Shown here: positions 36,398 through 61,398 of the stretch, piece after piece
How the letters are laid out: each line of letters starts with the position of its first letter
Position numbering within the stretch: the stretch's first letter is position 1
Assembly: GCF_050920415.1 (NCBI RefSeq)
Contig: NZ_CP169309.1
Reading direction: 5' to 3' (one strand)
Length of the DNA: 64,000 nt
DNA from: Escherichia coli
GTDB taxonomy: Bacteria; Pseudomonadota; Gammaproteobacteria; Enterobacterales; Enterobacteriaceae
Notes under the pieces: generated by a model
What the model saw: the letters and a program-made list of their open reading frames with translations, nothing else
The model's database searches: none
What the model was told of the DNA's origin: nothing
Translations under genes and position numbers: made by a program

Positions 36398-37012
36398 TTA
36401 TCGAAACAGTGGTTTAACCGCGACAGGAATCAACAGTTGTGATTGCCATTGCGCCAGCGTTAAGCGAGCCAGTTCACCCAGCGCACGGTAGAAAGGGTGT
36501 TCTGCTTTTTCGATAAAAACGTCGAGAAAACGTGTTGACCACGGAAAAAGATGCCATGCCAGCAATTCTTCACATTCTGTTTGGCGACCATTCTCCGCCA
36601 ACCACGCAGCCATCAACAGCAGTGAACCAAAATGATCTTCCGGTTCGTTTTGCTTCATTTCGAACTGAATGCCTTTCTCGCGCATCCATTGACGAAGTGC
36701 CAATGTTGAATCGCCAAACAGCACAGATTCGCGATCCAGCCAGACCGACCCCCACGGCGGAGACGGCAGTGCCCACGGGCCGACAAACAAACGCTGCCAG
36801 GCCTGGGCGCGAGTCTCTTCACTCTGTGCCTGAAAAGCCGTCACCAGCGGCGCTAATGACGCTTCTGGTAGAGGCCACTGAGTTTCCCAGCCGTCACTGG
36901 TGAGTACCGCAACCAGAGGTGCGGCTTCCGCACTCTCTGGAGCGTAATAAAACAGCGCGCCCAACACGCGCGCCGCGACAGAAAAATTATCTTGCTGTGA
37001 AAAATGGGTCAT
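36398..37012 (-). CDS. dmsD: Tat proofreading chaperone DmsD (204 aa)
   Basis: MTHFSQQDNFSVAARVLGALFYYAPESAEAAPLVAVL...; last gene of the ynfEFGH-dmsD operon. Confidence 0.88.
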   Translation of the reverse strand: MTHFSQQDNFSVAARVLGALFYYAPESAEAAPLVAVLTSDGWETQWPLPEASLAPLVTAFQAQSEETRAQAWQRLFVGPWALPSPPWGSVWLDRESVLFGDSTLALRQWMREKGIQFEMKQNEPEDHFGSLLLMAAWLAENGRQTECEELLAWHLFPWSTRFLDVFIEKAEHPFYRALGELARLTLAQWQSQLLIPVAVKPLFR

Positions 37013-38534: not shown

Positions 38535-40958
38535 TTAAACCTTTTCGATCTGGACGAGATTGCTGTGCGACGGGTTTCCCTTTGCCAGCGGTGAAGGGCG
38601 GTGAGAGGTCAGAATATTGATACTGCCGCCGTGATCGACCCGGTCACCAAACATATCCGCTTTAAGCCACGCACCTTGCCCGATGGCGGTAACGCCAGGC
38701 AGAATACGCGGAGTCACTTTTGCGGCAATCAGCATTTCTCCATTATTGTTAAATACCCGCACGGTATCGCCATGACGGATACCGCGTGCCTGAGCATCAA
38801 TGGGGTTGATCCACACCTCTTGTGGGCAGGCCTGCTGTAACACATCAATATTGCCGTAGCTGGAGTGGGTACGCGCTTTGTAGTGGAAGCCCGTTAACTG
38901 CAGTGGATAGGTTTTCCGCAGGGGATCGTCCCAGCCATCAAAACCTGGGGTATACGCAGGAAGGGGATGAATAATTTCATCTTTTTTCAATTCCCAGGTA
39001 TCTGCAATCTTCGCCAGTCGTTCAGAATAAATTTCGATTTTCCCCGAAGGTGTTTTCAATGGGTTTGCCTGTGGATCTTCACGGAATGCGCGGAAAGCGA
39101 CGTAATGTTCTTCCGGGCATTTTTTCTTAAAGATCCCGGTCGTTTTCATCTCCTCGTAGTCCGGCATCTCAGGGTTACGTTCCTTCGTTTTCGCATGGAG
39201 ATATTTGATCCATTCATGCTGACTGCGACCTTCAGTAAAGGTTTGATAAACGTCTGGTCCTAAGCGTTTCGCGACTTCACTCAGCATCCAGTAGATGGGT
39301 TTGCGTTCAAATTTTGCTGAGGTTGCGGGTTGGGCGAGGATCACATAGCCCATATTCCCTGCAGATTCATGAGAGATAAGGTCTTCTTGCTCTGTTGGCA
39401 TCAGGTCGGGCAACAGGATATCGCAATACTTAGCCGAGGCCGTCATGAAGTGGTCAATGCCAACAATCATCTCGCACTTGCTGTCATCCTGAAGCACCTC
39501 ATGGGTGTGATTGATGTCGCCATGTTGATTGATCAATGTGTTACTGGCGTAGCACCATAAAAACTTGATGGGGACATCCAGTTTTTCTTTTCCACGAATA
39601 CCATCACGGGTCGCGGTCATTTCCGTACCGTGGTCGATGGCATCTGTCCATGTAAAGACGGAAATCTGCGTTTTAACAGGATTATCAAGCATCGGGAACC
39701 ATTCGACCCCCAGATCCCAGCTACCTTCGCGTACACCTGAGTTGCCGCCGTTTATGCCGACGTTACCGGTGAGAACGGAAAGCATGGCAATAGCGCGGGA
39801 CGTTTGCTCGCCGTTGGAGTGTCGTTGTGGCCCCCAACCCTGACAAATATAAGCAGGTTTTGCTGAACCGATCTCTCGTGCCAACTGGATAATTTTTTCT
39901 GCCGGGATGCTGGTGATTTTTGCTGCCCATTCCGGCGTTTTAGCTATGCCGTCAGGCCCTTCGCCCAGAATATAGGCTTTATAATGCGCGTTACGTGGTG
40001 CGTTGGCGGGCAGCGTTTTTTCATCGTAACCAACACAATATTTGTCGAGAAATGGCTGATCGACCATGTTTTCCGTAATCAGTACCCAGGCAATCGCACA
40101 GGCCAGTGCGCCATCGGTGCCAGGGCGAATGGGCAGCCATTCATCTTCACGCCCGGCAGCTGTGTCGTTATAACGTGGATCAATGACGATCATGCGTGCG
40201 TTTGAACGTTCGCGGGCTTGCTCGACGTAGTAAGTGACACCACCGCCGCTCATCCGGGTTTCTGCCGGGTTATTTCCGAACATAACGACCAGCTTCGTAT
40301 TGGCGATATCATCCGGGCTGTTGCCATCATTGGCACCGAACATATAACTCATTGCGGCACTGATCTGTGCGGTACTGTAGCTGCCATAGCGACTGAGAAA
40401 ACCACCACAAGAGTTCATCAGACGGTACGGGACGTTTGAGTTGGTGATGTTTCCGCCATCTACGCCTGTTCCATAGAGAACATGTACAGCCTCATTGCCG
40501 TAATCTTTTAGGATCCGCCGAAGATTATCACTGATGGTCTCCAGGGCTTCGTCCCAACTTATCCGTTCAAATTTACCTTCACCGCGCTTGCCGACGCGCT
40601 TCATGGGATATTTCAACCTATCAGGATGATTCATCCGTCGGCGGATAGAGCGCCCGCGTAAACAGGCGCGAACCTGATGATTACCGTAGACGTCGTCACC
40701 TGTCGTATCAGACTCCACCCAGTACACAGTGTCATCTTTCACATGCAAACGTAACAGACAGCGGCTCCCGCAGTTAACGGTGCAGGAACTCCAGACCGCT
40801 TTCTCTTCTACCGGAGCCTCTGCCGCTCGGACCATTTGGGAAAATGGCAGAGTGAAAGCACTGCTTGCCAGCGCGAGACTGCCAAGTGCGGAGGTTTTCA
40901 TCAGACTTCTACGGCTGATTTCAGCCTTCATGAGCGCCTCTGTGGTATGGATTTTCAT
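38535..40958 (-). CDS. ynfF: Molybdopterin oxidoreductase catalytic subunit YnfF (DmsA paralogue, 807 aa)
   Basis: Tat signal (SRRSLMKTSALGSLALA), N-terminal Cys cluster (CTVNCGSRC), MopB domains; intact. Confidence 0.9.
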   Translation of the reverse strand: MKIHTTEALMKAEISRRSLMKTSALGSLALASSAFTLPFSQMVRAAEAPVEEKAVWSSCTVNCGSRCLLRLHVKDDTVYWVESDTTGDDVYGNHQVRACLRGRSIRRRMNHPDRLKYPMKRVGKRGEGKFERISWDEALETISDNLRRILKDYGNEAVHVLYGTGVDGGNITNSNVPYRLMNSCGGFLSRYGSYSTAQISAAMSYMFGANDGNSPDDIANTKLVVMFGNNPAETRMSGGGVTYYVEQARERSNARMIVIDPRYNDTAAGREDEWLPIRPGTDGALACAIAWVLITENMVDQPFLDKYCVGYDEKTLPANAPRNAHYKAYILGEGPDGIAKTPEWAAKITSIPAEKIIQLAREIGSAKPAYICQGWGPQRHSNGEQTSRAIAMLSVLTGNVGINGGNSGVREGSWDLGVEWFPMLDNPVKTQISVFTWTDAIDHGTEMTATRDGIRGKEKLDVPIKFLWCYASNTLINQHGDINHTHEVLQDDSKCEMIVGIDHFMTASAKYCDILLPDLMPTEQEDLISHESAGNMGYVILAQPATSAKFERKPIYWMLSEVAKRLGPDVYQTFTEGRSQHEWIKYLHAKTKERNPEMPDYEEMKTTGIFKKKCPEEHYVAFRAFREDPQANPLKTPSGKIEIYSERLAKIADTWELKKDEIIHPLPAYTPGFDGWDDPLRKTYPLQLTGFHYKARTHSSYGNIDVLQQACPQEVWINPIDAQARGIRHGDTVRVFNNNGEMLIAAKVTPRILPGVTAIGQGAWLKADMFGDRVDHGGSINILTSHRPSPLAKGNPSHSNLVQIEKV

Positions 40959-41018
40959 CATTACTCACTTATTGCTTTTCAAACAAAATGTCATGCCAGA
41001 ATTTATGGTTGTAGTGGG

Positions 41019-43206
41019 TTATATTTTTTCGATCTCGACCAGATTAGTGTGCTGCGGGTTTCCCTTCGCCAGTGGTGAAGGGCGCAGAGTGGTTAGCGTA
41101 TTCACACAGCCGCCGTGGTCGATTTTATCGCCAGACATATTGGCCTCGTGCCAGGCTCCCTGGCCCATAGCGCTAACTCCAGGGAGAATGCGTGGTGTCA
41201 CTTTGGCTGGTAGCCGAACTTCGCCACGATGGTTAAACACCCGCACCATATCGCCGTTGGCAATCCCACGTTTCTGTGCATCTATAGGGTTGATCCACAC
41301 TTCCTGACGGCAGGCTGCCTTCAGGACATCAATGTTGCCGTAGGTCGAGTGAGTACGAGATTTGTAATGGAAACCAAACAGTTGTAGCGGGAAGGTACTA
41401 CGTTCAGGGGCGTCCCAGCCTTCGAAGGTTGAGGCATAAACCGGCAGTGGGCTTATTACTTCATCTTTTTCGAGTTCCCAGGTACGGGCAATTTCCGCCA
41501 GTTTGCTGGAATAAATTTCGATCTTACCGGAAGGCGTTTTAAGTGGATTTGTCTCGGGGTCGTCACGAAATGCTTTGTAGGCGATAAAATGACCATTAGG
41601 ATCCTTACGCTTATAGATACCCATTTTTTTCAGTTCGTCGTAAGACGGTAATGCCGGATCTTTGGCAAGCATTTTGGCGTACAGATGTTGTAACCATTGT
41701 TCCTGAGTGCGGCCTTCAGTGAATTTTTGATAGACGTCAGGGCCAAGACGTTTCGCGACTTCACTTAGGATCCAGTAAATCGGTTTGCGTTCGAATTTTT
41801 CGCTGGTGACTGGCTGGAGGAAAATGAGATATCCCATGTTACCGGCGTAATCGTTAGGAATAATATCTTCCTGCTCAACGGTCATCAGGTCTGGCAGCAG
41901 AATGTCGGCATATTTTGCCGATGAGGTCATAAAGTTTTCGATGACCACAATCATTTCGCATTTCGATTCGTCCTGCAGAATTTCATGCGTTTTGTTAATG
42001 TCAGAATGCTGATTAACCAGGGTATTTCCCGCGTAGTTCCAGATGAACTTAATGGGCACATCCAGTTTATCTTTGCCGCGGACGCCGTCGCGGATTGCCG
42101 TCATTTGCGGGCCATGATCGATAGCATCCGTCCAGCTGAAGCAGGAGATTGATGTTTTGACCGGATTATCCAGCACCGGCAGGCGTTCTATGGTAATGGT
42201 ATAGGTGGATTCACGCGCGCCACTATTTCCGCCGCTGATGCCGACATTGCCCGTCAGAATAGGCAACATCGCAATAGCGCGTGCGGTCAGCTCACCGTTT
42301 GCCTGGCGTTGCGGTCCCCAACCCTGGCAGATATAAGCGGGTTTTGCTGTGCCGATTTCACGCGCCAGTTTGATGATACGGTCCACCGGGATACCGGTAA
42401 TTTGCGAAGCCCACTGCGGCGTTTTCGCTGTGTTATCATCACCTTCACCAAGAATATAGGCTTTATAGTGGCCATTTTTTGGTGCATCTGCGGGTAAGGT
42501 TTTTTCGTCATAACCGACGCAGTATTTATCGAGAAAAGGTTGATCAACGAGATTTTCGTTAATCAATGCCATCATTACTGCCGTAGGTGTAGGGCATGGC
42601 ACAGGAAATTTGCGCGGTGCTGTAGGAGCCATACTGGTTGAGTGAACCGCCGTAGCAGTTCATCAGGCGTTTGACCGCCGAGGCTGATGGCGAAGAGCGG
42701 GTCATATTGCCGCCAACGATCCCCGAAGAGTACTGAATATATACAGCCTCATTGCCATATTGTTCGACGGTTTTTTTCAGACTACTGGCGATAGTATCCA
42801 GGGCTTCATCCCAGCTAATCCGTTCGAATTTGCCTTCGCCGCGTTTGCCCACGCGTTTCATTGGGTAATTCAAGCGATCGGGATGATTAATACGCCGACG
42901 GATGGACCGACCGCGCAAACAGGCGCGTACTTGATGATTGCCATACTCGTCGCTGCCGGTGTTGTCAGTTTCCACCCAGGTGACTTCATTATCTTTAACA
43001 TGTAGACGAAGTGCACAGCGGCTACCACAGTTGACGGAACAGGCACCCCAGACCACTTTTTCGCTGGCCTGTTGTACCGCTGCCGCTGCACTGCGCAGGG
43101 TGAACGGTAAAGAAAAACCGCCTGCAGCCAGCGCCAGAGAACCTATCGCGGTAGATTTAACGAGTGTTCTGCGGCTGATGCCCACCATTTGTTCATTTTT
43201 GGACAT
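41019..43206 (-). pseudogene. ynfE: ynfE (DmsA paralogue) disrupted: N-terminal 215-codon ORF (42559..43206) and C-terminal 537-codon ORF (41019..42632) lie in different frames; about 80 codons are missing at the junction
   Basis: N-terminal ORF has Tat signal and Cys cluster and ends ...YGSNDGID-stop. C-terminal ORF resumes at ...LINENLVDQPFLDKYCVGYDEK. The intact paralogue ynfF in this same window has 80 residues between the equivalent NDG and LITENMVDQ. Confidence 0.75.
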
Positions 43207-46133: not shown

Positions 46134-47348
46134 ATGAAGATCGTAAAGGCTGAAGTTTTTGTTACCTGTCCGGGGCGTAATTTCGTCACATTAAAAATCA
46201 CCACTGAGGACGGTATTACGGGCCTTGGGGATGCCACCCTCAATGGACGTGAGCTTTCCGTGGCCTCTTATTTGCAGGATCACCTTTGTCCGCAGCTTAT
46301 TGGTCGCGATGCACAGCGTATCGAAGATATCTGGCAGTTTTTCTATAAAGGTGCTTACTGGCGTCGCGGTCCGGTGACGATGTCGGCCATTTCAGCGGTT
46401 GATATGGCGTTGTGGGATATTAAAGCCAAAGCTGCCAACATGCCGCTTTACCAGTTACTCGGCGGCGCGTCTCGTGAAGGGGTGATGGTTTATTGCCATA
46501 CCACCGGTCACAGTATTGATGAAGCTCTGGATGATTATGCCCGTCATCAGGAGCTGGGATTCAAAGCCATCCGCGTGCAGTGCGGAATCCCTGGTATGAA
46601 AACCACCTACGGCATGTCGAAAGGCAAAGGTCTGGCTTATGAACCCGCAACCAAAGGACAGTGGCCGGAAGAGCAGCTGTGGTCGACGGAGAAATACCTC
46701 GATTTCATGCCGAAATTGTTTGACGCGGTACGTAACAAGTTTGGTTTTAATGAACATTTGCTGCATGACATGCACCATCGCTTAACGCCTATTGAAGCGG
46801 CGCGCTTTGGTAAAAGCATTGAAGATTATCGCATGTTCTGGATGGAAGACCCGACGCCTGCGGAAAACCAGGAATGCTTCCGTCTCATTCGCCAACATAC
46901 CGTCACACCCATCGCGGTGGGTGAAGTCTTCAACAGCATCTGGGACTGCAAACAGCTGATTGAAGAACAACTTATCGACTATATCCGCACCACGCTGACT
47001 CACGCGGGGGGGATTACCGGTATGCGCCGGATTGCCGATTTTGCTTCGTTGTATCAGGTACGTACTGGCTCACACGGTCCTTCCGATTTGTCACCAGTCT
47101 GCATGGCTGCGGCGCTGCACTTTGATCTGTGGGTCCCCAATTTCGGTGTCCAGGAATACATGGGCTATTCCGAACAAATGCTCGAAGTCTTCCCGCACAA
47201 CTGGACTTTCGATAACGGCTATATGCATCCGGGAGACAAACCGGGTCTTGGCATCGAATTCGATGAAAAGCTGGCGGCGAAATATCCCTATGAACCTGCT
47301 TATCTGCCAGTCGCACGTCTGGAAGATGGCACGCTGTGGAACTGGTAA
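46134..47348 (+). CDS. rspA: Starvation-sensing protein RspA, enolase-superfamily mannonate dehydratase-like (404 aa)
   Basis: [42 protein letters not shown] from internal ATG 46134. Confidence 0.9.
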
Positions 47349-47359
47349 GGAGTAAGATA

Positions 47360-48379
47360 ATGAAAAGCATTTTAATTGAAAAACCGAATCAACTGGCAAT
47401 TATCGAACGCGAAATACCCACCCCGTCAGCGGGTGAAGTTCGAGTAAAAGTGAAACTTGCCGGAATTTGTGGTTCAGATAGCCATATTTATCGTGGGCAT
47501 AATCCTTTTGCGAAATATCCGCGCGTCATTGGACATGAATTCTTTGGCGTCATTGATGCAGTGGGTGAAGGCGTGGAAAGCGACAGAGTCGGTGAACGCG
47601 TTGCTGTCGATCCGGTGGTCAGCTGTGGGCATTGCTATCCGTGCTCTATAGGTAAGCCGAACGTTTGTACGACACTGGCTGTATTAGGTGTGCACGCTGA
47701 CGGTGGTTTCAGTGAATATGCCGTGGTGCCGGCAAAAAATGCGTGGAAAATTCCTGAAGCAGTGGCCGATCAATATGCGGTGATGATCGAACCTTTTACC
47801 ATTGCGGCTAACGTTACCGGTCATGGTCAACCGACTGAAAATGATACCGTTCTGGTTTACGGTGCAGGTCCAATCGGCCTGACGATCGTTCAGGTATTAA
47901 AAGGCGTCTATAACGTTAAGAATGTGATTGTTGCCGATCGCATTGATGAACGACTGGAAAAAGCGAAAGAGAGCGGGGCAGACTGGGCGATTAATAACAG
48001 CCAGACACCGCTTGGCGAGATTTTCGCTGAAAAAGGCATAAAGCCGACATTAATTATCGATGCGGCTTGTCATCCTTCAATCCTGAAAGAAGCCGTAACG
48101 CTGGCTTCTCCAGCGGCACGTATTGTATTGATGGGCTTCTCCAGTGAACCGTCTGCAGTGATTCAGCAAGGAATTACCGGAAAAGAACTCTCTATTTTCT
48201 CTTCACGCTTAAATGCAAATAAATTCCCGGTCGTTATCGACTGGTTAAGTAAAGGGTTAATTAAACCAGAAAAACTAATTACCCATACGTTTGATTTCCA
48301 GCATGTTGCTGATGCCATTAGTTTATTTGAACAGGATCAAAAGCATTGCTGCAAAGTCTTACTCACTTTTTCTGAATAA
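47360..48379 (+). CDS. rspB: Zn-dependent medium-chain dehydrogenase RspB (339 aa)
   Basis: MDR motifs GICGSDSH and GHEFFG; start at internal ATG 47360. Confidence 0.9.
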   Translation: MKSILIEKPNQLAIIEREIPTPSAGEVRVKVKLAGICGSDSHIYRGHNPFAKYPRVIGHEFFGVIDAVGEGVESDRVGERVAVDPVVSCGHCYPCSIGKPNVCTTLAVLGVHADGGFSEYAVVPAKNAWKIPEAVADQYAVMIEPFTIAANVTGHGQPTENDTVLVYGAGPIGLTIVQVLKGVYNVKNVIVADRIDERLEKAKESGADWAINNSQTPLGEIFAEKGIKPTLIIDAACHPSILKEAVTLASPAARIVLMGFSSEPSAVIQQGITGKELSIFSSRLNANKFPVVIDWLSKGLIKPEKLITHTFDFQHVADAISLFEQDQKHCCKVLLTFSE

Positions 48380-48566: not shown

Positions 48567-49862
48567 TTAATTTTTCACCACCTCGTTTTGGGGCATGGTT
48601 GGGGCAAACTCGCTTAGCTGTGTATTTAACAGGGCTACCTGTGCATTATTGTTTTCAGACATCCATTTCCCGTATACCTGAAACACCATTTGCGCATCTG
48701 CATGTCCCATCTGGTTTGCTATGAATGCCGGGTTGGCACCGGCTGTCAACGACCAGCAGGCATAAGTATGTCTCGACTGATATGATTTGCGGTGGCGGAG
48801 GCCAGCGCGCTTTATCGCTGCGTCCCACATCTGCCTTATTGAGTCAACGGTAAAATGGTCACCATAATTTTTTACTCTCGCTGACACTTCAGGTTGAAAA
48901 ACAAAGGTGCATTTTTGTTTTTCTGTTCTGCCGAACTCTCTGAGGTGAACGTCAATAATATGTTCTTTGCTCAGCCTCGTTAGTGTCATCTGACTCCTGA
49001 GAGCGTCGATTGCAGGCTTGATAAGGTGAATTACCCGATTGGTACCAGCCTGTGTTTTCGGTACCGTAAAACGATCTTTTGCTAAATTTCTCCTGATCAT
49101 CATTGTTCCATTTTTCAGATCTATGTCCTCCCACCCAAGCGCACACAGTTCACCAGGGCGAATGCCTGTATAAACAGAAACACACCATAAATTTTTGGCC
49201 TGCTGATTTCTGCAGGCGTCGATAAGACGGATAAATTCCTCCCGTGAAAGAGGATCAGGAATGGTTCTTGATTCCTTTAATGGCGAGATCCCCTTAAACG
49301 GATTATCTGCCAGGTAACCGTTATCAACACCAAACTGGAACACGGCGTTAAGATTTGTCATGTAATTATTTACAGTTACAGCCGATCTCCCTGGTTGTGT
49401 AACAATATAGTTACTTTTGGGGATCTGGTATCCAGTCAGTAGCTCTTTACGAACCTCCAGTAATTTTTCTTTATTAATCGATGAGGCAAGATTTTTTTCA
49501 CCGATTATGCTCAGGATATTTTTGATGACGGCACGGTATGTGTTGAGTGATGCTTTGGCGACTTCAGTTTCTTTCAGTGCCAGAAATTTTTCAGCCAGTT
49601 CTTTTATGGTTAAATCTTGTCGGGCCTCACCAAATTTTTCCAGATTGCGTGAGGAGGGAAACTGTTTTGCATAGTCGAAAACACCAGTTTTTATTGCGTA
49701 ACAAACAGAGGAGCGTAGTTCACCTGCAACGCGCCTGTTTTTTGCTGTGTCAGGAACCCCCAGATTTTCCCTGACTCTTACGCCTTTATAAACAAACCAG
49801 ATACGTAATTTCCCTCCATGGTTTTCCACGCCTGTCGGATATTTCATTTCAACTTCTCTCAT
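48567..49862 (-). CDS. Prophage tyrosine integrase (site-specific recombinase)
   Basis: C-terminal catalytic region with RHTYACW (His-x-x-Arg), GHADAQM and VYGKW (Tyr nucleophile); phage Int N-terminal arm-binding-type domain. True start may be the internal ATG giving MKYPTGVENHGG. Confidence 0.85.
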   Translation of the reverse strand: MREVEMKYPTGVENHGGKLRIWFVYKGVRVRENLGVPDTAKNRRVAGELRSSVCYAIKTGVFDYAKQFPSSRNLEKFGEARQDLTIKELAEKFLALKETEVAKASLNTYRAVIKNILSIIGEKNLASSINKEKLLEVRKELLTGYQIPKSNYIVTQPGRSAVTVNNYMTNLNAVFQFGVDNGYLADNPFKGISPLKESRTIPDPLSREEFIRLIDACRNQQAKNLWCVSVYTGIRPGELCALGWEDIDLKNGTMMIRRNLAKDRFTVPKTQAGTNRVIHLIKPAIDALRSQMTLTRLSKEHIIDVHLREFGRTEKQKCTFVFQPEVSARVKNYGDHFTVDSIRQMWDAAIKRAGLRHRKSYQSRHTYACWSLTAGANPAFIANQMGHADAQMVFQVYGKWMSENNNAQVALLNTQLSEFAPTMPQNEVVKN

Positions 49863-49881
49863 TAGTTAGTGTGGCTTTTAG

Positions 49882-50133
49882 TCAAGTAAGATGACGTCTT
49901 GGTCTCGCTGATGCCTGGCGCTCAATCCAGCGATCAATTTCTTCCAGGTTGTAAAAGCATGGACTGTTATCCCATGGCATACCGTCATGAGCGACATGCT
50001 TATATTCCCTTCCTTCCATAAACGATTTTTCCCGGGCCTTTTTTAACGTACCTTTTTTTATTCCTTTCAGCGCAATTAACTGCTCTTCGGATACCCATTT
50101 GCCGGGAGAGACAATCATGATTACTTCGCTCAT
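49882..50133 (-). CDS. Excisionase-like small protein (putative Xis)
   Basis: 83-codon ORF immediately upstream of int on the same strand; small basic protein. Function inferred from position and size. Confidence 0.55.
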   Translation of the reverse strand: MSEVIMIVSPGKWVSEEQLIALKGIKKGTLKKAREKSFMEGREYKHVAHDGMPWDNSPCFYNLEEIDRWIERQASARPRRHLT

Positions 50134-50205
50134 CGATTTCTTTATCTCTTACATCAGACGAGCGCCGGTTGCAGAATACCAGTCACAACCGGCGACAGTT
50201 GAACA

Positions 50206-52677
50206 TTAAGAATCAGCCTGACTCGGGATCAGTTTTTGCCAGATAACTGAAACGTATTTTGCCTGGTAACGGGCGTCATCAAGTGCATTATGGCGCTCAC
50301 CTTCGAATGGAATAGCCGTTCTGGCATCGAAGTCTATGGCTTTCCCCAGCTCAACGATTGTGCGTACATCGCGATCGTTGTAGTAACGCCACGGGCAGGG
50401 GATCCCCTGCCGTTCGTATGAACGGCGCAAAATCGTGTTGTCGAAGTTGGCTCCATTTCCCCAGACCTGAACAAAAAATTCACCGGAGTTTTCGTCGATA
50501 AATTCCCGCAATTGTAACAGTGCATCATCTAACGGGATTTCATCGGTCATAATGGCAGATTGCGCTTCGCGTGATTGCTTAAGCCACCATTTAATGGTGT
50601 CCCGATCAATGACTCCGCCAGCAGTTTCCAGATCGATAGTCTTACTAAATTCCGGTCCCATATCTCCGGTTTGCGGATCGAAAAATATTGCACCTATTGA
50701 GATAATCGGGGCATCAGGATTTTTTCCCATGGTTTCAAGGTCGATCATTAGATGGTCACACGTCCTGCTGGTGGATGTGATAACGTGATGACCGTTCACC
50801 GCAATTAAGGGATCTGCCGTCTCGCCAGTTTCATTATTGCTGGCGTGGTCCTGAGCGCTGCCAGCATTCTCCTTGTGTGGATGTTCAGCGCCTTCCATTT
50901 CCTCCGGATCATTTTCCTGAACTTCAACCTGATTCTCTTCATCGAATGTTTCTTGGTATGTTGCGTCGCCCATCACCGCACCACAATCAGGGCAGTTGCC
51001 GCCGCCGGTCTGACCGCATGCGGTGCAGACTTTTTCCGCTTCCTGTTGCGCTACTGGCTCAGGTTGTTTCGTTTCTGGCTCGTTTTGTAACGCATTTGGG
51101 CTGTTTTGTTCTGCTTTCTGGTCGTTCTGTTCCGTTTCTTGCTGGTTCTGATTCACTGAATCGCGGGTTTCAATCCCCTTCACCCATTTCGGATCATTCG
51201 GGTCGCTAATCCCTGCAACAAATTCACCACGTGATACAGCAAGCAACTTATCGGCGTCAGGCTGGCTGATATTGGCTGCCTGCATAATTTTGTTTACTTC
51301 GTCAGCGGTAACTTTTACCGGCTCTGGTTGTGCGGTCGTGTCAGATGCACCAGTATTTTGTTGTGAACCTGAGTATGTACCGTTTTTACGGGCAAAATAT
51401 TCTTCTTTCGTGATTTCAGTAGCCCCTGCAGTCAGCGCCTTATTCAGACCAGAAAGTTTGTTTGCGCGACCATATTTTTCGCCATCCTTGTCGGTGAAGA
51501 GGAAGTAGAACGGCCCCTCACGCTCTACAGATGGTTCGACTTCCACTTTGCATTCGGTTTTTTCGTTGTCCGGAATTGCCGTTTCCACTGCATCAGTTTC
51601 TGGTACTGGCGACGAGAGAGTATCAGTTGCGCTCTGATTTCTTCCTTCATCTTCAAACACGCCCTTTGTAGTCAGGTATTCAGTAATGTATTTGTTCAGT
51701 GTCACAGGGTCTTTGTGAATGTCGATCGGACGTTCACGGACAAGGCCAAAAATAGTCTGGCGGTCGTAGCGAAGGGCATCAGGCTGTTTGCGCATTGATG
51801 CCGAGATACGCTTCCAGTCTTCGCGGTCGTTGTCGATAACTTCATTTTTTGCCCAGCGATGGATGCTGCCGTCAATGTTTCCGGCATCCACATCACCAGG
51901 CCAGAGAGCGTAGGCCAGTTCGTCATCCAGTGTTTTCCATGTCTGCTTGTATTCGCGATGAGTGGCAGCAATGACCGGGCTGATTTTTCCTGTTGAATTG
52001 TCAGTGTACTGTTGATTGGCTCTGGCGCGGGCGAGATCAACAACAGACGTGTATTTTCCGGTTTCCTTGCGTTCACCTTCGCGACGTTTTTTCCAGATGC
52101 GCATCTCTGCCTGAATTTCGGGCCATTTAGCACCAGGAATACATTTATGCTTAACCCACCCAATGGCGTGCAACTTAAGCTCCGGATACATGGCGTTAAC
52201 TTCTGGCATTTTCATCAACGCTTCAACGATATGTCCGTCGAATGTTGCCATGTCTTCCTGCAACAATTCCTGTGCGCTAATAACCATATCAACGGTGATG
52301 TTTTCACATGTGTCGAACTTAACCAGGACCGCGTTCTGTACTTCAGGGGACAGCTTGTCAAAATTGACGTTCATCGGATCGGATTCTGGTTCGACCGGGA
52401 CAAAGGAAGCGCCTTCCTCATCCCAGCGGTTTTCCAGCATATATTCGGTATCCCAGGAGTCGATGGCAGGGCGGGGCATGCCGGGTTTATCCTCGCAGAC
52501 AAGAAATTTATAAGCGCAGTCCTGAGCAGCCGGATATTGCTCCAGGAATTGCCAGGTAAATTTGGCTCGGGCGCGACGTTCGTCGCCGGCTTCAATGGCA
52601 GTGGCTACAGCGACTGCACCTTCTTCCTTTATTGCCTGTTCGTCCGGAATGGCGGCGCAAATAAAGACTTTACTCAT
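50206..52677 (-). CDS. Prophage RecE-like protein (823 aa): acidic/Gln-rich linker with CxxC...CxxC zinc ribbon and C-terminal DEDDh-type 3'-5' exonuclease motifs
   Basis: Linker ...DPNDPKWVKGIETRD...CTACGQTGGGNCPDCGAVMGDATYQETFDEE... resembles the RecE linker as I recall it. C-terminus has Exo I motif MIDLETMG, Exo II-like FVQVWGNGANFD and Exo III HNALDDARY. Confidence 0.6.
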   Translation of the reverse strand: MSKVFICAAIPDEQAIKEEGAVAVATAIEAGDERRARAKFTWQFLEQYPAAQDCAYKFLVCEDKPGMPRPAIDSWDTEYMLENRWDEEGASFVPVEPESDPMNVNFDKLSPEVQNAVLVKFDTCENITVDMVISAQELLQEDMATFDGHIVEALMKMPEVNAMYPELKLHAIGWVKHKCIPGAKWPEIQAEMRIWKKRREGERKETGKYTSVVDLARARANQQYTDNSTGKISPVIAATHREYKQTWKTLDDELAYALWPGDVDAGNIDGSIHRWAKNEVIDNDREDWKRISASMRKQPDALRYDRQTIFGLVRERPIDIHKDPVTLNKYITEYLTTKGVFEDEGRNQSATDTLSSPVPETDAVETAIPDNEKTECKVEVEPSVEREGPFYFLFTDKDGEKYGRANKLSGLNKALTAGATEITKEEYFARKNGTYSGSQQNTGASDTTAQPEPVKVTADEVNKIMQAANISQPDADKLLAVSRGEFVAGISDPNDPKWVKGIETRDSVNQNQQETEQNDQKAEQNSPNALQNEPETKQPEPVAQQEAEKVCTACGQTGGGNCPDCGAVMGDATYQETFDEENQVEVQENDPEEMEGAEHPHKENAGSAQDHASNNETGETADPLIAVNGHHVITSTSRTCDHLMIDLETMGKNPDAPIISIGAIFFDPQTGDMGPEFSKTIDLETAGGVIDRDTIKWWLKQSREAQSAIMTDEIPLDDALLQLREFIDENSGEFFVQVWGNGANFDNTILRRSYERQGIPCPWRYYNDRDVRTIVELGKAIDFDARTAIPFEGERHNALDDARYQAKYVSVIWQKLIPSQADS

Positions 52678-52757
52678 TTTGTTTTAACCTCATTACAGAT
52701 TTAAGGGTGAACAAATCCCTGCCATTGCTGGCATATAAAAATGAAACCGGATATTAA

Positions 52758-52961
52758 TTACGGTGCTGTTTTAAGTCCTGCCGGGATTTCGTTATTGTCC
52801 ATGCGAATAACTTTCTCAACCGGATAACAGTTGCCGGGAATTTTCTGTTCCGCTGCGGCAGCCATGCATTCTTTCATTGAGTCATGTATACCAATAACAA
52901 GATCAACTGGCTCGCCCGTATTAAGAAAAACCGTCAGAACGAGTGCAAATGCTGTATTCAT
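52758..52961 (-). CDS. Hypothetical small secreted/membrane prophage protein (about 67 aa)
   Basis: ORF with signal-like N-terminus MNTAFALVLTVFLNTGE... immediately upstream of the recE-like gene; the track ORF extends to 53015. Confidence 0.35.
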   Translation of the reverse strand: MNTAFALVLTVFLNTGEPVDLVIGIHDSMKECMAAAAEQKIPGNCYPVEKVIRMDNNEIPAGLKTAP

Positions 52962-53898
52962 TGCCAGTATCCTTTTTGCATCAGACGTAAACGGGCCAGC
53001 ATTGATACAATGCATATTTGATTTAATAGCTCCCGTTCGTGTTTTCTCTTATTAATGGCATCTTCAGTAAATACAGGGTTACTGATTCTGACACCAATTT
53101 CAAAACAACCTTCAGACGTATTAACGTTTGGTAATAACGTTTCCATTATCGCGTCCTCAACAATGAATTTTGTGATACGGTGCCTGGTGCCTCCAGGTGA
53201 CGTTAACCAGTTAACAATTAACGCCGGATACAGAGAACCCACCCATAAGAACCAATACGGAAGTCAACTGGCCTTTTTAACTGTTCCGCGTGCGCTTAGC
53301 CGCATTCACCGCATCACAAAATTCACTTTAAAAAGGGCGGCAGAGCAGTCACGGAGTAAAACTGATACCGCCAAACGTCACCAGAAAATTGATAACAGAG
53401 GGCGTTGCAGCGGGGTTGCCACTTAAGCGTATGGTCAACCTGACAACCCGGTGTCCTCAACGGGGAAGGAATAACCCCGCCATACTTACCGCCGCGCCAT
53501 TTCGCGGATTGCCACAACCGGAAGCGCACAGACGAAGATGTCAGTGGTACACAACAAAGGGAGGAATGACTTCGCCGTGCGCTTTCGCGTTATGCCCTGA
53601 CTTTTCAGGGATATATCCTTTCAGTAAACTGTTTGTGCCGGATTCTTATCCGTGTCCGGCGCACGACCACGCGCTGTCACGTGTGGTCTCCATTCTCAAC
53701 CAGTAACCTCAATGGAGGATAAAATTAAAATGGTCAGCAAACTAAATTAGACTCGCTGGAAGATTCATTATTAAACAGCGCGTTTAAATTATATTCTTGA
53801 ATGTTTTGGGGATAACCTTGCTGCTGAGGAAGGCTATCCAAACCATGTCGATGGTTTCGAAGCGATATATCTTTATCTATCCCGTAAACATGGATGGA

Positions 53899-54300
53899 CT
53901 ATTTCACAGTGTCGTTTAATGCCACTGGATGATATTCGCCTTGCTCTTTCGTTAGAGCTATCAGGGTGGCGACTCCCTGATGATGCAAAGATTGACGACC
54001 ATCATTCTCACGATGATATAAGTTGTTAAGTTCCAGTAGTTTGGCTTTTGCAATGGCCTCTACAGATTTCCAGAATTTGTGGGGGTCTGTACTCTCTTCC
54101 TGTTCGTCAGGAATGTTATTGTCCTCAACAGAAACAGAATACAGTCCGGTAAACGCATCGCGCACATTACGAGCCATATTATCAATGTCTTTTTTCGTTT
54201 CAGCTTCTAATGCAACTTCGTTCAGACGTTGACGAAGTGTATGTGCTGCAATTTCTTGGATTTCTTTTGGTAACTCTTTAAATTCCATAGTCAACCTCAT
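53899..54300 (-). CDS. Hypothetical prophage early-left protein (about 130 aa)
   Basis: ORF translationally coupled to the upstream 76-codon ORF (the two share position 54300); acidic helical protein; no family recognised. Confidence 0.45.
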   Translation of the reverse strand: MRLTMEFKELPKEIQEIAAHTLRQRLNEVALEAETKKDIDNMARNVRDAFTGLYSVSVEDNNIPDEQEESTDPHKFWKSVEAIAKAKLLELNNLYHRENDGRQSLHHQGVATLIALTKEQGEYHPVALNDTVK

Positions 54301-54530
54301 CAGTCAGTGTTTCTGGCTAACCAGCGATGCGCGCCAGTTTCGGTTTTAAACGTTTTGCTTTTGGTATATGTCATCGCGGTGAACGTACCGTCCTGGTTGG
54401 GGAACACGCCACATACCAGAGATTCGCTGTTGCCAAGATCGATAGTATCCATGCTGACCTCATTTCCCCTTAACGCCGGGGTGGCGGAACAAAAACCTGC
54501 TGCATAGTTAAAGTTGAACCCTGCCGTCAT
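54300..54530 (-). CDS. Hypothetical small prophage protein (50-76 aa)
   Basis: First ORF after the putative early-left operator; possible internal start MDTIDLGNSESLVCGVFPNQDGTF. Confidence 0.4.
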   Translation of the reverse strand: MTAGFNFNYAAGFCSATPALRGNEVSMDTIDLGNSESLVCGVFPNQDGTFTAMTYTKSKTFKTETGAHRWLARNTD

Positions 54531-54620
54531 GTTCTTACGCCTCGGGCTGGCTACTTAACCCCTGACCACTGCCTGGTAACTCGAAGTATTGCCCTGCGTT
54601 CTGTGGGGCGGGGTGGTATA

Positions 54621-54650
54621 CTATAAAACTAAATCTATTTAGTTTTATAG
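54621..54650. promoter_or_regulatory. Perfect 14-bp-arm palindrome CTATAAAACTAAAT-CT-ATTTAGTTTTATAG; candidate OL-type operator for the CI-like repressor
   Basis: Exact 30-bp inverted repeat between the repressor gene and the early-left ORFs; a related half-site (CTAAAA...TTTTAG) recurs in the cI-cro intergenic region. Confidence 0.55.
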
Positions 54651-54671
54651 TCAAGCGCGATCTAGATATAT

Positions 54672-54698
54672 TTAAAAAAAGGTCGACAAAGCCGACCT
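54672..54698 (-). terminator. Candidate rho-independent terminator downstream of the repressor gene
   Basis: Minus-strand hairpin AGGUCG-loop-CGACCU followed by U7, about 25 nt after the repressor stop. Confidence 0.5.
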
Positions 54699-54721
54699 CT
54701 GATTGAAAAACAAAGTGGAAG

Positions 54722-55372
54722 CTATAGGCTGAACTGCACACCTTTTGCTACAGCAACAATTTTACATTCAGGTGTCAGTAAGGACGATTGATAGCGAGGA
54801 TTGAGGGGGCTTAAATACACGAGTTTTCCGTCGATGACTAATTTTTTTATAGTCATAGATGGTTCGTTTGTAAGCGGATCTGGGACTATTACAGCGACGA
54901 TACTACCATTTTTATATTTTTCTCTAGGCCTCATGATCACTGTGGCACCAACCGGAATGCTTGGCGACCCTGATGGGTTGTGCATAGTGTCATCAGGCAT
55001 TGAAACGGCAAAATCCCCCTCCTTGACGTCAAAGAATGTGGTGATTCTGTCGGCATTTCCCATAGTTTTCTCTCCTTCTAAAATTAGGAAAGAAATTGCT
55101 TCCCCCCATGAAAGATAGGGGATTTGGGTGCCTGAATTGTTCTGCACAAGGGTAGGTTCAGTAGACGATACTCCATATAGGAGATAGGACTCAGTAGTTC
55201 CTAGTGCTTGGGCTAATTTACTAAGAGCTTTGCTACCGGGTTCGTTTAGGTCTTTCTCCCAGTACCCTATAGTTACCCCTGTTACGCCAGAAAGCTTGCC
55301 CAGTTCGACTTGGGTCAGTCCCTTGTCTTTTCTGAGTCTCTTAAGCCTAATGCCAAGGCTTTCCATCATCAT
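54722..55372 (-). CDS. Prophage CI-like repressor: XRE-type HTH plus S24 (LexA-like) autopeptidase domain
   Basis: N-terminal HTH (LKRLRKDKGLTQVELGKLSGVTGVTIGYWE) and C-terminal S24-like region (...GSIVAVIV...KKLVIDGKLVYLSPLN); divergent from a cro-like gene. Confidence 0.85.
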   Translation of the reverse strand: MMMESLGIRLKRLRKDKGLTQVELGKLSGVTGVTIGYWEKDLNEPGSKALSKLAQALGTTESYLLYGVSSTEPTLVQNNSGTQIPYLSWGEAISFLILEGEKTMGNADRITTFFDVKEGDFAVSMPDDTMHNPSGSPSIPVGATVIMRPREKYKNGSIVAVIVPDPLTNEPSMTIKKLVIDGKLVYLSPLNPRYQSSLLTPECKIVAVAKGVQFSL

Positions 55373-55464
55373 CTCCCGTGAATTGAATATAAATTATTTT
55401 AGATTGCATTGACCTAAAAAAAATTATCCTTTAATCTAAAAATACTTAGTTTTAGGAGGGTGAA
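55373..55464. promoter_or_regulatory. Divergent promoter/operator region between the cI-like and cro-like genes
   Basis: AT-rich 92-bp spacer with partially palindromic sites TTTAGATTGCATTGACCTAAA (55398-55418) and CTAAAAATACTTAGTTTTAG (55436-55455); AGGAGG RBS precedes the cro-like start. Confidence 0.5.
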
Positions 55465-55692
55465 ATGCGAGTTGATGAACTTGTCCAGTTTTTTGGCTCT
55501 GTTCAGAGAGTTGCCGATTTTTATGGGATAACCCGTGAAGCTATATACATGTGGCGCAAACGTCCTGGTGAAATAGTTCCCAAGGGGAGGGCCGCGGAAG
55601 CTGCCGCATACTCCAAGGGAAAATTATCTTTGAACCCAGAACTTTACAAAAAGAAGGATAACACCTTGAACGAAGGAAAGAATGATTCATGA
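55465..55692 (+). CDS. Cro/YdaS-like small HTH regulator (75 aa)
   Basis: Small protein with HTH-like segment VQRVADFYGITREAIYMWRKR; first gene of the rightward operon opposite the repressor. Confidence 0.7.
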   Translation: MRVDELVQFFGSVQRVADFYGITREAIYMWRKRPGEIVPKGRAAEAAAYSKGKLSLNPELYKKKDNTLNEGKNDS

Positions 55693-56114
55693 AAATCAAG
55701 CATGAACACATCCGCATGGCTATGAATGCCTGGGCGCGTCCGGATGGTGAAAAAGTTCCGGCGGCCAAGATAACCAGGGCTTATTTCGAACTGGGAATGA
55801 CGTCCCCGGAACTGTACGACGACAGCCATCCAGAAGCCCTGGTTCGTAATACTCAGAAAATTTTCCGCTGGGTGGAGAAAGACACCACTGATGCGGTTGA
55901 AAAAATTCAGGCGTTGTTACCAGCAATCGAAAAAGCAATGCCACCTCTGCTGGTGGCCCGGATGCGCAGCCACAGTTCAGCCTATTTTCGGGAGTTGGTG
56001 GAGACGCGGGAACGACTGGTGAGAGACGCTGATGATTTTGTCGCAGTGGCAATCGCCGGTTTCAATCAGATGAATCGTGGTGGCCCGGCAGGAAATGCTG
56101 TGGTGATGCACTAA
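55689..56114 (+). CDS. YdaT/CII-like prophage regulatory protein (141 aa)
   Basis: Begins MKIKHEHI... like Rac YdaT as I recall it; overlaps the cro-like stop; sits where lambdoid cII lies. Confidence 0.55.
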   Translation: MKIKHEHIRMAMNAWARPDGEKVPAAKITRAYFELGMTSPELYDDSHPEALVRNTQKIFRWVEKDTTDAVEKIQALLPAIEKAMPPLLVARMRSHSSAYFRELVETRERLVRDADDFVAVAIAGFNQMNRGGPAGNAVVMH

Positions 56115-56137
56115 AAGCACGGTGTTCGGGGTTTTTT

Positions 56138-56962
56138 ATGAGCAGCAAGCTTCATGGTCTTGTCTGGGAAGGGTGCGCCTTCACCGGCATGATCTTATCC
56201 AGGGTGGCAGTAATGGCTCGCCTTGCAGACTACAGCAATGACGAAGGTGTGTCATGGCCTGCAGTGGAGACCATTCGTCGTCAGATTGGGGCAAAGAGTG
56301 AATCAACGGTTAAAGCGGCGATAGCGGAACTGGAAAAGAACGGCTGGCTGACGAAGGAGGAGCGTAAGGTCGGTGGGCGTAATGAAAGCAATATCTACCG
56401 CCTTAATGTGGAAAAACTCGAAGCAGCAGCTGAGGCGGCGCGTGAGGCATATAAACCGAAAAGAAAAATTAGCCCGGCAAAAAATGACCCGTTAACAGTT
56501 GACCAGTCAAATATTGCCCCCTCAACGGTTGACCCGTCAAATTTTGATGGATCAACCGTTGGTAAAAAACAGCCGGTTAGGGGGGCGATGGTTGGCCCCG
56601 ATCCGTCAGTATTAAAACCTGATCCGTCAGATAAAAGATCTTTTCGTCCGGAAGCTTCGCAACCGGACCCGCAGACGGCTGAACAGGATTTTTTAACCCG
56701 ACATCCTGATGCGGTTGTGTTTAGTGCAAAAAAACGTCAGTGGGGAACTCAGGAGGATTTGGCATGCGCACAGTGGATCTGGGGGCGAATCGTGAGTCTT
56801 TACGAACAGGCCGCCAGCGATGATGGCGAGATCACCCGACCGAAAGAACCCAACTGGACAGCATGGGCCAATGACGTGCGCATAATGCGGATGCTGGATG
56901 GCAGAACTCACAGACAAATCTGTGAACCGCCCCGGGTTTCCTGGAGAGTGTTTTATCTGTGA
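56138..56962 (+). pseudogene. Phage replication-initiator (O-like, N-terminal winged-HTH) gene, 5' part; interrupted by an IS element after codon 261
   Basis: N-terminus ...AVMARLADYSNDEGVSWPAVETIRRQIGAKSESTVKAAIAELEKNGWL is typical of phage replisome-organiser proteins. The frame ends inside the IS inverted repeat; the original frame resumes at 58235 and stops at 58414. Confidence 0.65.
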
Positions 56963-56964
56963 AC

Positions 56965-57831
56965 TCAGGCTGCCAGATCATTGTTTCCGATGGAAGCATA
57001 ATAAGCTTTTTCTGCTTCTGCCGGAGGAGTATGGCCCAGCCTTCCCAGCAATCGTCGATTGTTATACCAGTCCACCCACGTGAGTGTGGCCAGTTCCACT
57101 TCTGCACGGTTTTTCCAGCTCTTACGGTGTATTACCTCCGCTTTGTAAAGACCATTGATGCTCTCAGCCATCGCGTTGTCATACGAGTCGCCTGTACTCC
57201 CTGTTGATGCCAGCAGTTTTGCTTCTTTTAGTCGCTCCGTATAGGCCAGTGACACATACTGAGAGCCTTTATCGCTGTGATGGATGGTGCCAGACGGACG
57301 ACGGGCCCACAACGCCTGCTCCAGCGCATCCAGCACGAATGTCGTTTCCATAGACGATGAGACCCGCCACCCCACGATGTATCCGGCAAACACATCAATG
57401 ATGAACGCCACATAGACGAAGCCCTGCCATGTGCTGACGTAAGTAAAATCAGCCACCCACAGCTGGTCAGGACGTTCTGCCACGAACTGACGGTTTACGC
57501 GGTCACCTGTGGCAACGGTTTTCCGGCTGACGGTAGTGCGGACCTTTTTACCCCGGAGAACACCGGCAAGTCCCATAACCGCCATGAGGCGCGCCACTGT
57601 ACATCTGGCCACCCTGATTCCTTCCCGTAACAACTGACGCCAGACTTTACGCACACCGTACACCTGATGATTTTCATCGTATACGCGCTGTATCTCTCTC
57701 TTCAGCCAGTCATCGCGCTGCGCACGGGCACTGCGTTTATCAGGATGATGCCGCTGCTGCTGACAATGGTAATACGTTGACGGGGCAATATGCAGTTCAC
57801 TGCATACCGGTCCGACCCCCGTACTGCTCAC
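56965..57831 (-). CDS. IS3-family transposase OrfB (DDE integrase core)
   Basis: DDE core ...LWVADFTYVSTWQGFVYVAFIIDVFAGYIVGW...HHSDKGSQY...DSYDNAMAESINGLYKAE. In this copy the body is in the same frame as orfA rather than the -1 frame. Confidence 0.85.
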   Translation of the reverse strand: MSSTGVGPVCSELHIAPSTYYHCQQQRHHPDKRSARAQRDDWLKREIQRVYDENHQVYGVRKVWRQLLREGIRVARCTVARLMAVMGLAGVLRGKKVRTTVSRKTVATGDRVNRQFVAERPDQLWVADFTYVSTWQGFVYVAFIIDVFAGYIVGWRVSSSMETTFVLDALEQALWARRPSGTIHHSDKGSQYVSLAYTERLKEAKLLASTGSTGDSYDNAMAESINGLYKAEVIHRKSWKNRAEVELATLTWVDWYNNRRLLGRLGHTPPAEAEKAYYASIGNNDLAA

Positions 57832-57852
57832 GCAGCTTATCCAGCAGTGGCA

Positions 57853-58179
57853 TTATTTTTTCCAGAGGCGGTCGAACTCCGCCTTCGCAAAATAAGCGGA
57901 AGCCTGGCGAAGGATATCGTTACTGCGGCGCAGTTCACGATTTTCACGTTCCAGCTCTTTCAGACGCTGACGTTCAGCGGTGGTGAGCCCACCATCACCG
58001 CTCCCGGTATCCCTCTCATGCTGGCGAACCCAGACACGCAGAGTCTCTGGCGTACAGCCAATCTTTGGAGCAATGGAACAAATTGCCGCCCATTGTGAGT
58101 CATATTCGCCCTGACTTTCCAGAACCATACGAACTGCGCGTTGACGGACTTCGGGGGAAAAACGAGTATTTTTAGTCAT
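57853..58179 (-). CDS. IS3-family transposase OrfA (HTH plus leucine zipper), 108 aa
   Basis: [57 protein letters not shown]...; ends WKK-stop at an A-rich run. Confidence 0.85.
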
Positions 58180-58234
58180 CCTGTTTACCTCTTTCTCAGG
58201 AAGTTTAGTCTCCAGGATTTCCGGGGCGGTTCAC

Positions 58235-58414
58235 TGCGAAATGTTTGGTCGGGTACAGCGGGATCCATTCTGGGTAAAAAACATCATGAGCCCGTCAAAA
58301 CTTCGCGATAAATGGGATGAGCTGGTTATCCGTCTGGGGCGTTCGCCTGTACAGCGTTGTGTGAATCATATTTCTGAACCTGACACCGAAATTCCACCAG
58401 GGTTCAGGGGGTAG
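58235..58414 (+). other. 3' remnant (59 codons) of the IS-interrupted phage replication gene
   Basis: Joining 56138..56922 to 58237.. (removing the IS and one CTG copy) restores a continuous frame ...RQICEMFGRVQRDPFWVKNIMSPSKLRDKWDELVIRLG... ending at TAG 58412-58414. Confidence 0.6.
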
Positions 58415-58454
58415 GTATTGATTTCAGATCATGAGGTAATTTTCAGGAGGACTT

Positions 58455-58877
58455 GTGGCAAAAGTTTTTACACAAGAAGAGCGGGAAAAAATTAAGGGAC
58501 AGGTTGTTGCACTCGTACGCCAGAGTGGGCGCGAGACGTTACGACAGCTGGAAGCTAAAACAGGTGCGACAAGATATCTGATTAGCGTTCTTGCCTGGGA
58601 GCTGGTTGCCAGTGGCGATGTATACAACTCTGGCTATGGGTTATTCCCGTCAGAACAGGCTCGTAAGGACTGGCAAAACGCCCGCAAAAAACTATCGAGG
58701 GCAAAGGGGAAGAAACCGTCTATGGTTGATCCGGACCTTATCTGGTCATTACCTGACGGAGAAATTCGTCGCTACGATAGTCGCCATAACATGGTTTGTC
58801 GCGAGTGTCTGGAAAGTGAAGTAATGCAGCGAGTGTTGGCATTTTATCAGGGAAATGTTCGCTATTTATTGAAGTGA
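58455..58877 (+). CDS. Hypothetical prophage protein (140 aa)
   Basis: GTG-start ORF after the replication gene; no recognisable family. Confidence 0.4.
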   Translation: MAKVFTQEEREKIKGQVVALVRQSGRETLRQLEAKTGATRYLISVLAWELVASGDVYNSGYGLFPSEQARKDWQNARKKLSRAKGKKPSMVDPDLIWSLPDGEIRRYDSRHNMVCRECLESEVMQRVLAFYQGNVRYLLK

Positions 58878-59341
58878 CGAGATTAAAGAGCATTAATACA
58901 TATGTGAATTGACATTTCTGTGGCACAGGGCTAGAACTATTCTCATTGTCAGCGTTGTGCCAGAGTCTGATGTTTGTTGTACATTTGGACGAATAGACGG
59001 CGTTGTTAACTTTAAAAATAACACAGGAACACTTTGAGAAAGTGAACAGGCGTATTTATTTTTTGCTGATGAAGGAGAGTAACTTTAATTTGGGTAATTA
59101 GATTGATAATAGGCCAGACGAAAATAACATTCTGGCACACTTTTGGTCGCTACAGTCATTAGTTAATTTTAAGTGATAAATTTTTATCCATAAGTTAACA
59201 CTAGTGTGTCATCTAGCGAAACCGAATCGCTTTAATCCATAACTTAAAGTTGAATCAGTGGGGTAGCAGTAGGTATGCCGGAACTGATAAACTGTGCAGA
59301 AGGCTAAACATTCATTCACTCGTGAGATAGTAGCATAAATT

Positions 59342-59686
59342 ATGCAAAGAATTATTCCTGATAAAAATTGGTGGGAAAAAGAGCGTATTAATCGTAAAGC
59401 ATCATCAAAATGCCCATATGCTAGTTCATACAGATGTCCTCGGTACTATCAGAGTGTAGTTTTGCTCTCAAGCATCAATATGATAGCTGGTATGGCAACT
59501 AGGAAAGAAAAAGAGTTGGGCGAATTTGGGGAAAGAACTAGTTTCTCATATTTATGTGATGAAGAAGTCCCAACAGTTACTACAAAAGAATATGGCGGCC
59601 TTGCATCAGTTAGTAATTTTTGCCCAGAAATATCATTTAGATATTTACACTATTACGCCGATTATATGTGTAAATATGTTGATTAG
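59342..59686 (+). CDS. Hypothetical Cys-rich small protein (114 aa) in the AT-rich cargo island
   Basis: ORF in AT-rich DNA, 70 bp upstream of the HEPN-like gene on the same strand; several Cys in CP/CD contexts; weak RBS. Confidence 0.35.
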   Translation: MQRIIPDKNWWEKERINRKASSKCPYASSYRCPRYYQSVVLLSSINMIAGMATRKEKELGEFGERTSFSYLCDEEVPTVTTKEYGGLASVSNFCPEISFRYLHYYADYMCKYVD

Positions 59687-59755
59687 ATAGATCAGGATAC
59701 TGGCAGGCGTAGTGCGGAAAAAGATAATTTAGAAAATGATTGGAAATATACATGG

Positions 59756-60208
59756 ATGTCAGTCAATCCTAAATTTTATTTAGATTGCGATGTTTTTGAA
59801 AGTGTCAAAAACTTCAATGAAGAATTGGCTAGTGATTACTTAAAGAGATTGCATCCAAATATCATTCAGCAAATAGATAGAATGAATAATTGCTTGGATA
59901 ATAATGACCCTGCGGGTGCACTGCACGCAGCCTCTAATATTCTAGAAACTATGGCGAAGGAAATCACTCAAAACCCGAATGTGGCAAATGAGTCATTGGG
60001 TGGTTTTTTTAAACAGTTCGAAAAAATGTCAAAATTACCTAAGAATCTTATTGATATTGTTAAAGATATTTATGATTTACGCAACAAACTACCTACTGCT
60101 GGACACGGAAGCTTGAACAGGCCTGAATTAACTATGGTAGAAGCTATAACTATTGCGGCAATGACAAAGGCGATTTTAGAAATTGAATATCGAAGCAAAG
60201 CCATCTAA
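59756..60208 (+). CDS. Abi_C / HEPN-like abortive-infection-type protein (150 aa)
   Basis: C-terminal motif DLRNKLPTAGHGSLNRPE fits the R-N-x(n)-H-G signature of Abi_C/HEPN domains; AT-rich codon usage. Confidence 0.4.
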   Translation: MSVNPKFYLDCDVFESVKNFNEELASDYLKRLHPNIIQQIDRMNNCLDNNDPAGALHAASNILETMAKEITQNPNVANESLGGFFKQFEKMSKLPKNLIDIVKDIYDLRNKLPTAGHGSLNRPELTMVEAITIAAMTKAILEIEYRSKAI

Positions 60209-60702
60209 CAAACATAAATTATGTGGTTCAAATTCCCGCTATACTTCTGTGTTATTGCCGCCAGCGTCTACTTATCGCTGTGAGTTCAACGGGGCGATGA
60301 TGCGTTAGAGATCTCTGAATCGATTGAAGTCTAAGGTTGTCAGGGCTGTAACAGTAGCCCTGTGTCATGAAAGGATTGCATATTAATTAACGAAGAACAG
60401 ACCAATAGCATTGATAGTTGTTTTCAAAAATAGACCAATAACAAACACGACTGGCCATCTCATCGATTTTCGACAGTATGCAGAAATGGGCGGGATCCAC
60501 ACGCAGTACCAGCTTGCTAAGATAAACGAAAAGGAGACTTTAACCAGTCAGTGGCTGCATGCTGATGGTGATCCGCTATGGGCCGTAGATGTTGTTTGAT
60601 GTACGCAGAAAGAGACGACGAAGGGCACTATGCCGAAAACTAAATCGGTTTTAGAGATTAACCGCGCTGGTGAGCTGGAGTGATTGACTTTTAGAACGCC
60701 AG

Positions 60703-60732
60703 AAAGCAAAAACCTCACAATCGAGTGAGGTT
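60703..60732 (-). terminator. Candidate terminator after the kinase-partner operon (AACCTCAC-loop-GTGAGGTT)
   Basis: Perfect 8-bp stem; U-rich flank on the minus strand; lies 15 bp downstream of the 208-aa gene stop. Confidence 0.45.
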
Positions 60733-60746
60733 TTGTTAAGGGCTTA

Positions 60747-61373: not shown

Positions 61374-61398
61374 ATACACTCCTTAGATAGGACACTTA

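Follow-up and report, generated by a model that had tools for sequence, protein, structure and literature searches.

Is the broken ynfE of this Escherichia coli genome a gene that has truly been lost, or does it reflect an error of assembly? The gene belongs to the ynfEFGH-dmsD operon, which encodes a Tat-exported, DmsABC-like selenate/tellurate reductase and in which ynfE and ynfF are paralogous genes for the Mo-bisPGD catalytic subunit. In the stretch of 64,000 nt that we analysed (the window, from contig NZ_CP169309.1), ynfE had been described as two out-of-frame ORFs, and the initial annotation left a choice between a pseudogene in this strain and an assembly artefact. Our results support the first of these options and lead us to reject the second, and they place the lesion in a lineage rather than in a single strain. 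We consider it very likely (probability of about 0.95) that ynfE is a true, inherited pseudogene, resulting from a single internal deletion of 239 bp and the accompanying frameshift, in a tightly clonal Escherichia lineage.

The split of the gene (41019-43206, minus strand) was confirmed in both the ORF list and the minus-strand sequence. The ORF list gives a 5' ORF (42559..43206, minus strand) of 215 aa, which starts with MSKNEQMVGISRRTLVK and ends with YGSNDGID*, and a 3' ORF in a different frame (41019..42632, minus strand), which has 537 aa when counted from its first ATG and whose YnfE-like part begins at ALINENLVDQPFLDKYC (ALINENLVDQ onwards). The two overlap at 42559-42632, which is the 74 bp originally described. 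The part of the gene located after the break is an open frame of 515 codons, with no additional stops or indels. The size of the missing segment had been estimated from the intact paralogue, and we also counted 80 residues between GANDG and LITENMVDQ in the 808-aa translation of ynfF. The coordinates of these features are given in Table 1.

Table 1. Features of ynfE and of the neighboring operon genes, in window coordinates.
Feature	Coordinates	Strand	Basis
5' part of ynfE, codons 1-213	42568..43206	-	ORFs, alignment to intact ynfE
Junction, two out-of-frame codons (ATT GAT) and premature stop TAA	42559..42567	-	Sequence, alignment
3' part of ynfE, reference nt 879-2427, codons 294-808	41019..42567	-	ORFs, alignment
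ynfF, intact paralogue, 808 aa from first ATG (annotated 807 aa)	38535..40961	-	ORF list
ynfG'-ynfH in-frame fusion ORF, 489 aa	37055..38524	-	ORF list, comparison with intact ynfG
dmsD, last operon gene, intact	36398..37012	-	Annotation of near-identical genome

The checks proposed for this locus included an alignment to a reference ynfE and a comparison with other isolates, and we did both of these. For the former, the 2188-nt window region was aligned with ynfE of E. coli 2020CK-00188 (L002:6195-8621, 2427 nt), which is intact and is the closest such allele among the matches listed, with 99.0% identity. The alignment contains 22 substitutions and a single gap at ynfE nt 640-878, which is the sole length difference between the two alleles. 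The loss suspected to be of about 240 bp, and not a multiple of three, is thus of exactly 239 bp. Outside the gap the nucleotide identity is 98.99%, and this value and the synteny of the operon are those expected of a ynfE orthologue. On the minus strand, the junction reads AATGATGGC^ATTGATTAAC, between window positions 42568 and 42567, and the frame past it (ATT GAT TAA) reaches a stop two codons later. The deleted residues, 214-293, are NSTTDIENSKLVVMFGNNPAETRMSGGGITYLLEKAREKSNAKMIVIDPRYTDTAAGREDEWLPIRPGTDAALVAGIAWV. The deletion took codons 214-293 and shifted the frame, and translation from the native start ends two codons past the junction.

At the ends of the deletion, the microhomology is of about 1 bp, with one base (A) common to both endpoints that leaves a 1-base ambiguity in their placement. 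Inspection of the intact allele revealed no direct repeat longer than this shared base at the endpoints, and no IS remnant or scar was found at the junction. Because the ends have almost no repeat, illegitimate recombination, rather than slippage, probably removed the 239 bp from ynfE. A slipped-strand deletion was considered and is unsupported: there is an imperfect 8-mer (GTAATGAT / GTATTGAT) near both ends, but its register does not match that of the junction.

The comparison with other isolates bears on whether the lesion is real. Among the 5,426 complete RefSeq E. coli genomes, one, that of the food isolate MFDS1022581 from Korea (NZ_CP169399.1), matched the junction as one piece, with 100% identity. 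The other RefSeq records among the matches listed align in two pieces and span 239 bp more. The presence of the junction in only one complete RefSeq genome might suggest that an intact, 808-codon ynfE lost 239 bp in the assembly, and the second frameshift nearby, in ynfG, might by itself point to an assembly of poor quality. However, a clean loss of 239 bp in unique, non-repetitive coding sequence is atypical of assembler error, and the annotation of the near-identical MFDS1022581 includes just three pseudogenes across the 64-kb region (ynfE, the 'frameshifted' ynfG and a partial hok/gef gene). Moreover, the same junction and the same 215-aa product were found in at least five other independent assemblies. 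The identical junction is present in assemblies of different projects, GCA_000190955.1 (M863), GCA_000194575.2 (AEXD01, which we take to be strain STEC_7v), GCA_001650555.1, GCA_002965625.1 and NZ_CP169399.1, as well as in Logan contigs built from raw runs. The window itself, not being identical to NZ_CP169399.1, probably represents a further assembly with this junction. A sequencing or assembly artefact is thus extremely improbable.

A real deletion might still be a private and recent mutation of one isolate, caused for example by laboratory passage, as its rarity among complete genomes (1/5,426) could suggest. Several observations argue against this explanation. The exact 215-aa product occurs on 74 contigs and in 94 blocks of the protein collection. 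The split ynfE was found in contigs GL872041.1 (M863), AEXD01000014.1, JZDN01000048.1 and PTRQ01000001.1, and in Logan contigs from raw public reads (e.g., SRR31942419). In the records of M863, the 215-aa product and the 537-aa 3' ORF are present as EGB64060.1 and EGB64061.1, respectively. These carriers have varied sources: food in Korea, deposits of 2011 (M863 and AEXD01) and SRA runs. They also differ in prophage content beside rspB, where one of the loci that we compared (L007) has a MFS transporter gene in place of the prophage integrase, which indicates that the carriers are distinct isolates. We thus give hardly any credit to a mutation confined to one isolate. The gene carries a disabling lesion relative to its intact orthologues, and the same lesion is found in independent isolates and assemblies. 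Together, the independent assemblies and the distinct isolates imply that the deletion is real and inherited.

The carriers are closely related. The 39-nt junction string is present in all four loci that we compared (L005-L008), and over 11.8 kb each of them shows 0-2 substitutions relative to the window, so that they form one tight clone. Over the whole 64 kb, the window differs from NZ_CP169399.1 by four SNPs (at 21462, 22609, 48343 and 55843) and a 1.3-kb insertion, so its isolate is distinct from MFDS1022581 and very closely related to it. M863 is a strain of Escherichia clade I (PMC4182557), and the window very probably belongs to its clonal group. In our reading, the deletion arose once and is inherited by a clonal lineage that includes M863.

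A lambdoid prophage integrated beside rspB occupies 48567-64000 and encodes an integrase, an excisionase, an exonuclease, dicB, cI/cro-like regulators, a zeta-toxin family protein and a truncated hok/gef. One of the prophage genes (ORF 56138-56962) is interrupted by a 1.3-kb IS3-family element (56927-58233) with 26-nt terminal inverted repeats (GTGAACCGCCCCGGGTTTCCTGGAGA) and two reading frames, orfA (108 aa) and orfB (288 aa). This element presumably resembles IS629, and its site is empty in MFDS1022581. In 2020CK-00188, the position of rspB is taken by a gene for a 'Zn-dependent oxidoreductase' (L002:1023-2042), with about 57% nucleotide identity to the rspB of the window (47336-48379), and the gene that follows it encodes a TRAP transporter. 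The low identity and the presence of the transporter gene suggest that a segment may have been replaced at the edge of the region.

What would the deletion mean for the protein? As sequenced, ynfE is unable to encode the 808-aa protein. The deleted residues lie within the Molybdopterin oxidoreductase domain (PF00384, residues 111-566 of the intact orthologue) and align to conserved segments of the R. sphaeroides DMSO reductase 1eu1. A Mo-bisPGD catalytic subunit of the YnfE/DmsA type requires a complete PF00384, from which residues 214-293 are gone, and one continuous frame of about 808 codons, which the frameshift interrupts. Since the 80 lost residues are inside the molybdopterin-binding domain, even an in-frame product would miss part of the cofactor-binding fold. 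The YnfE product would thus be disabled twice over, by the frameshift and by the incomplete fold, and its function was probably lost.

The fragments are nevertheless open, and one might argue that they remain functional. They could be translated independently, through internal restart or programmed frameshifting in the overlap, and together provide an active enzyme. The 5' fragment has the native start, the twin-arginine signal SRRTLVK and the Cys motif of the FS0 [4Fe-4S] cluster, CSVNCGSRC (PF04879 spans residues 49-108 in the intact orthologue). It also keeps Ser196, which aligns with Ser147 of the R. sphaeroides DMSO reductase (1eu1), a residue that we take to be the Mo ligand. Alternatively, the 215-aa fragment, with its Tat signal and FeS motif, could have acquired a new role such as the titration of DmsD, a protein that binds the YnfE signal peptide (PMC5203670). 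Yet, both fragments lack the 80 residues that were deleted from the conserved cofactor-binding domain, and we noticed neither a slippery site nor an RBS for the 3' part when reading the 74-bp overlap by eye. The companion lesion in ynfG suggests decay, and the lineage is too clonal for purifying selection to show. A functional split gene is accordingly a very unlikely explanation, and we retain that of an inherited pseudogene.

In ynfG, 4 bp are missing after nt 566 (at about window 37958/37959), which changes CAGCCGCCCGAC into CAGCCGAC. This loss fits slippage between two CCG triplets as a possible origin. It exchanges the final 14 residues of YnfG for AIPLVIWLIRRKCK, and the frame continues into the start of ynfH, itself intact as a reading frame. 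The four Cys clusters of YnfG are all upstream of the frameshift, as read on the translation. The two lesions go together: MFDS1022581 was the one complete RefSeq E. coli genome that matched the ynfG region without the 4-bp gap, all contigs of the lineage that we examined have the ynfG deletion, and ynfE is split in every contig that we read for the YnfG-YnfH fusion. In MFDS1022581, PGAP annotated ynfG just as a 'frameshifted' pseudogene.

Given the loss of ynfE and the slippage-type deletion in ynfG, the entire ynf operon seems to be in decay; dmsD stays intact. We infer that selection on the operon is relaxed. Some activity may be retained if the YnfG-YnfH fusion still works, since ynfF is intact. 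The operon might have been remodelled instead of decayed, with YnfF as the sole catalytic subunit and a covalently fused YnfG-YnfH protein for electron transfer and membrane anchoring. Such a fusion is topologically conceivable if the N-terminus of YnfH, like that of DmsC, is periplasmic. If true, the remodelled operon would be a naturally occurring case of an iron-sulfur subunit fused to the membrane anchor in an enzyme of the DmsABC type. We regard this scenario as unlikely.

The loss of ynfE as an inherited pseudogene is in line with what is known of these genes. YnfE is the main catalytic subunit in Salmonella (PMC5203670). In E. coli, the two catalytic subunits YnfE and YnfF have been described as paralogous isoenzymes, and the double deletion of ynfEF abolishes selenate reduction (PMC12724226). 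The maturation of DmsABC also needs DmsD (PMC12096835). Among metabolic genes, those with the highest frequency of pseudogenes in 2,377 E. coli genomes include ynfE and ynfF (PMC13322260). Many other short fragments of YnfE, from E. coli and Shigella, fall into the same 90% cluster as the 215-aa product, and several of these are labelled 'partial' at their source. The window allele resembles the ynfE of K-12-type E. coli in chromosomal position and in the gene order ynfD-ynfE-ynfF-ynfG-ynfH-dmsD-clcB, but nt 640-878 are missing from it and its frame is shifted. Outside the deletion, its nucleotide identity with the closest intact allele is about 99%, and with the alleles of the other listed E. 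coli about 97.6-98.8%. As with other pseudogenised ynfE and ynfF of E. coli and Shigella, one of the redundant Ynf catalytic subunits is lost. The window allele differs from them by its own 239-bp deletion, its restriction to one clonal lineage and its coupling with the ynfG-ynfH fusion.

This pseudogene is already known from the public records, where PGAP annotated the ynfE of MFDS1022581 as 'frameshifted'. For one clonal Escherichia lineage related to M863, the split ynfE provides a genuine marker deletion, which makes resequencing unnecessary, and the junction k-mer CTACGGCAGTAATGATGGCATTGATTAACGAAAATCTCG could serve as a lineage-specific marker by PCR or k-mer search. Because ynfE is redundant and weakly selected, its loss in one lineage is the expected kind of erosion. 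Its significance beyond annotation is small: it adds one more case of E. coli losing one of the redundant YnfE/YnfF subunits.
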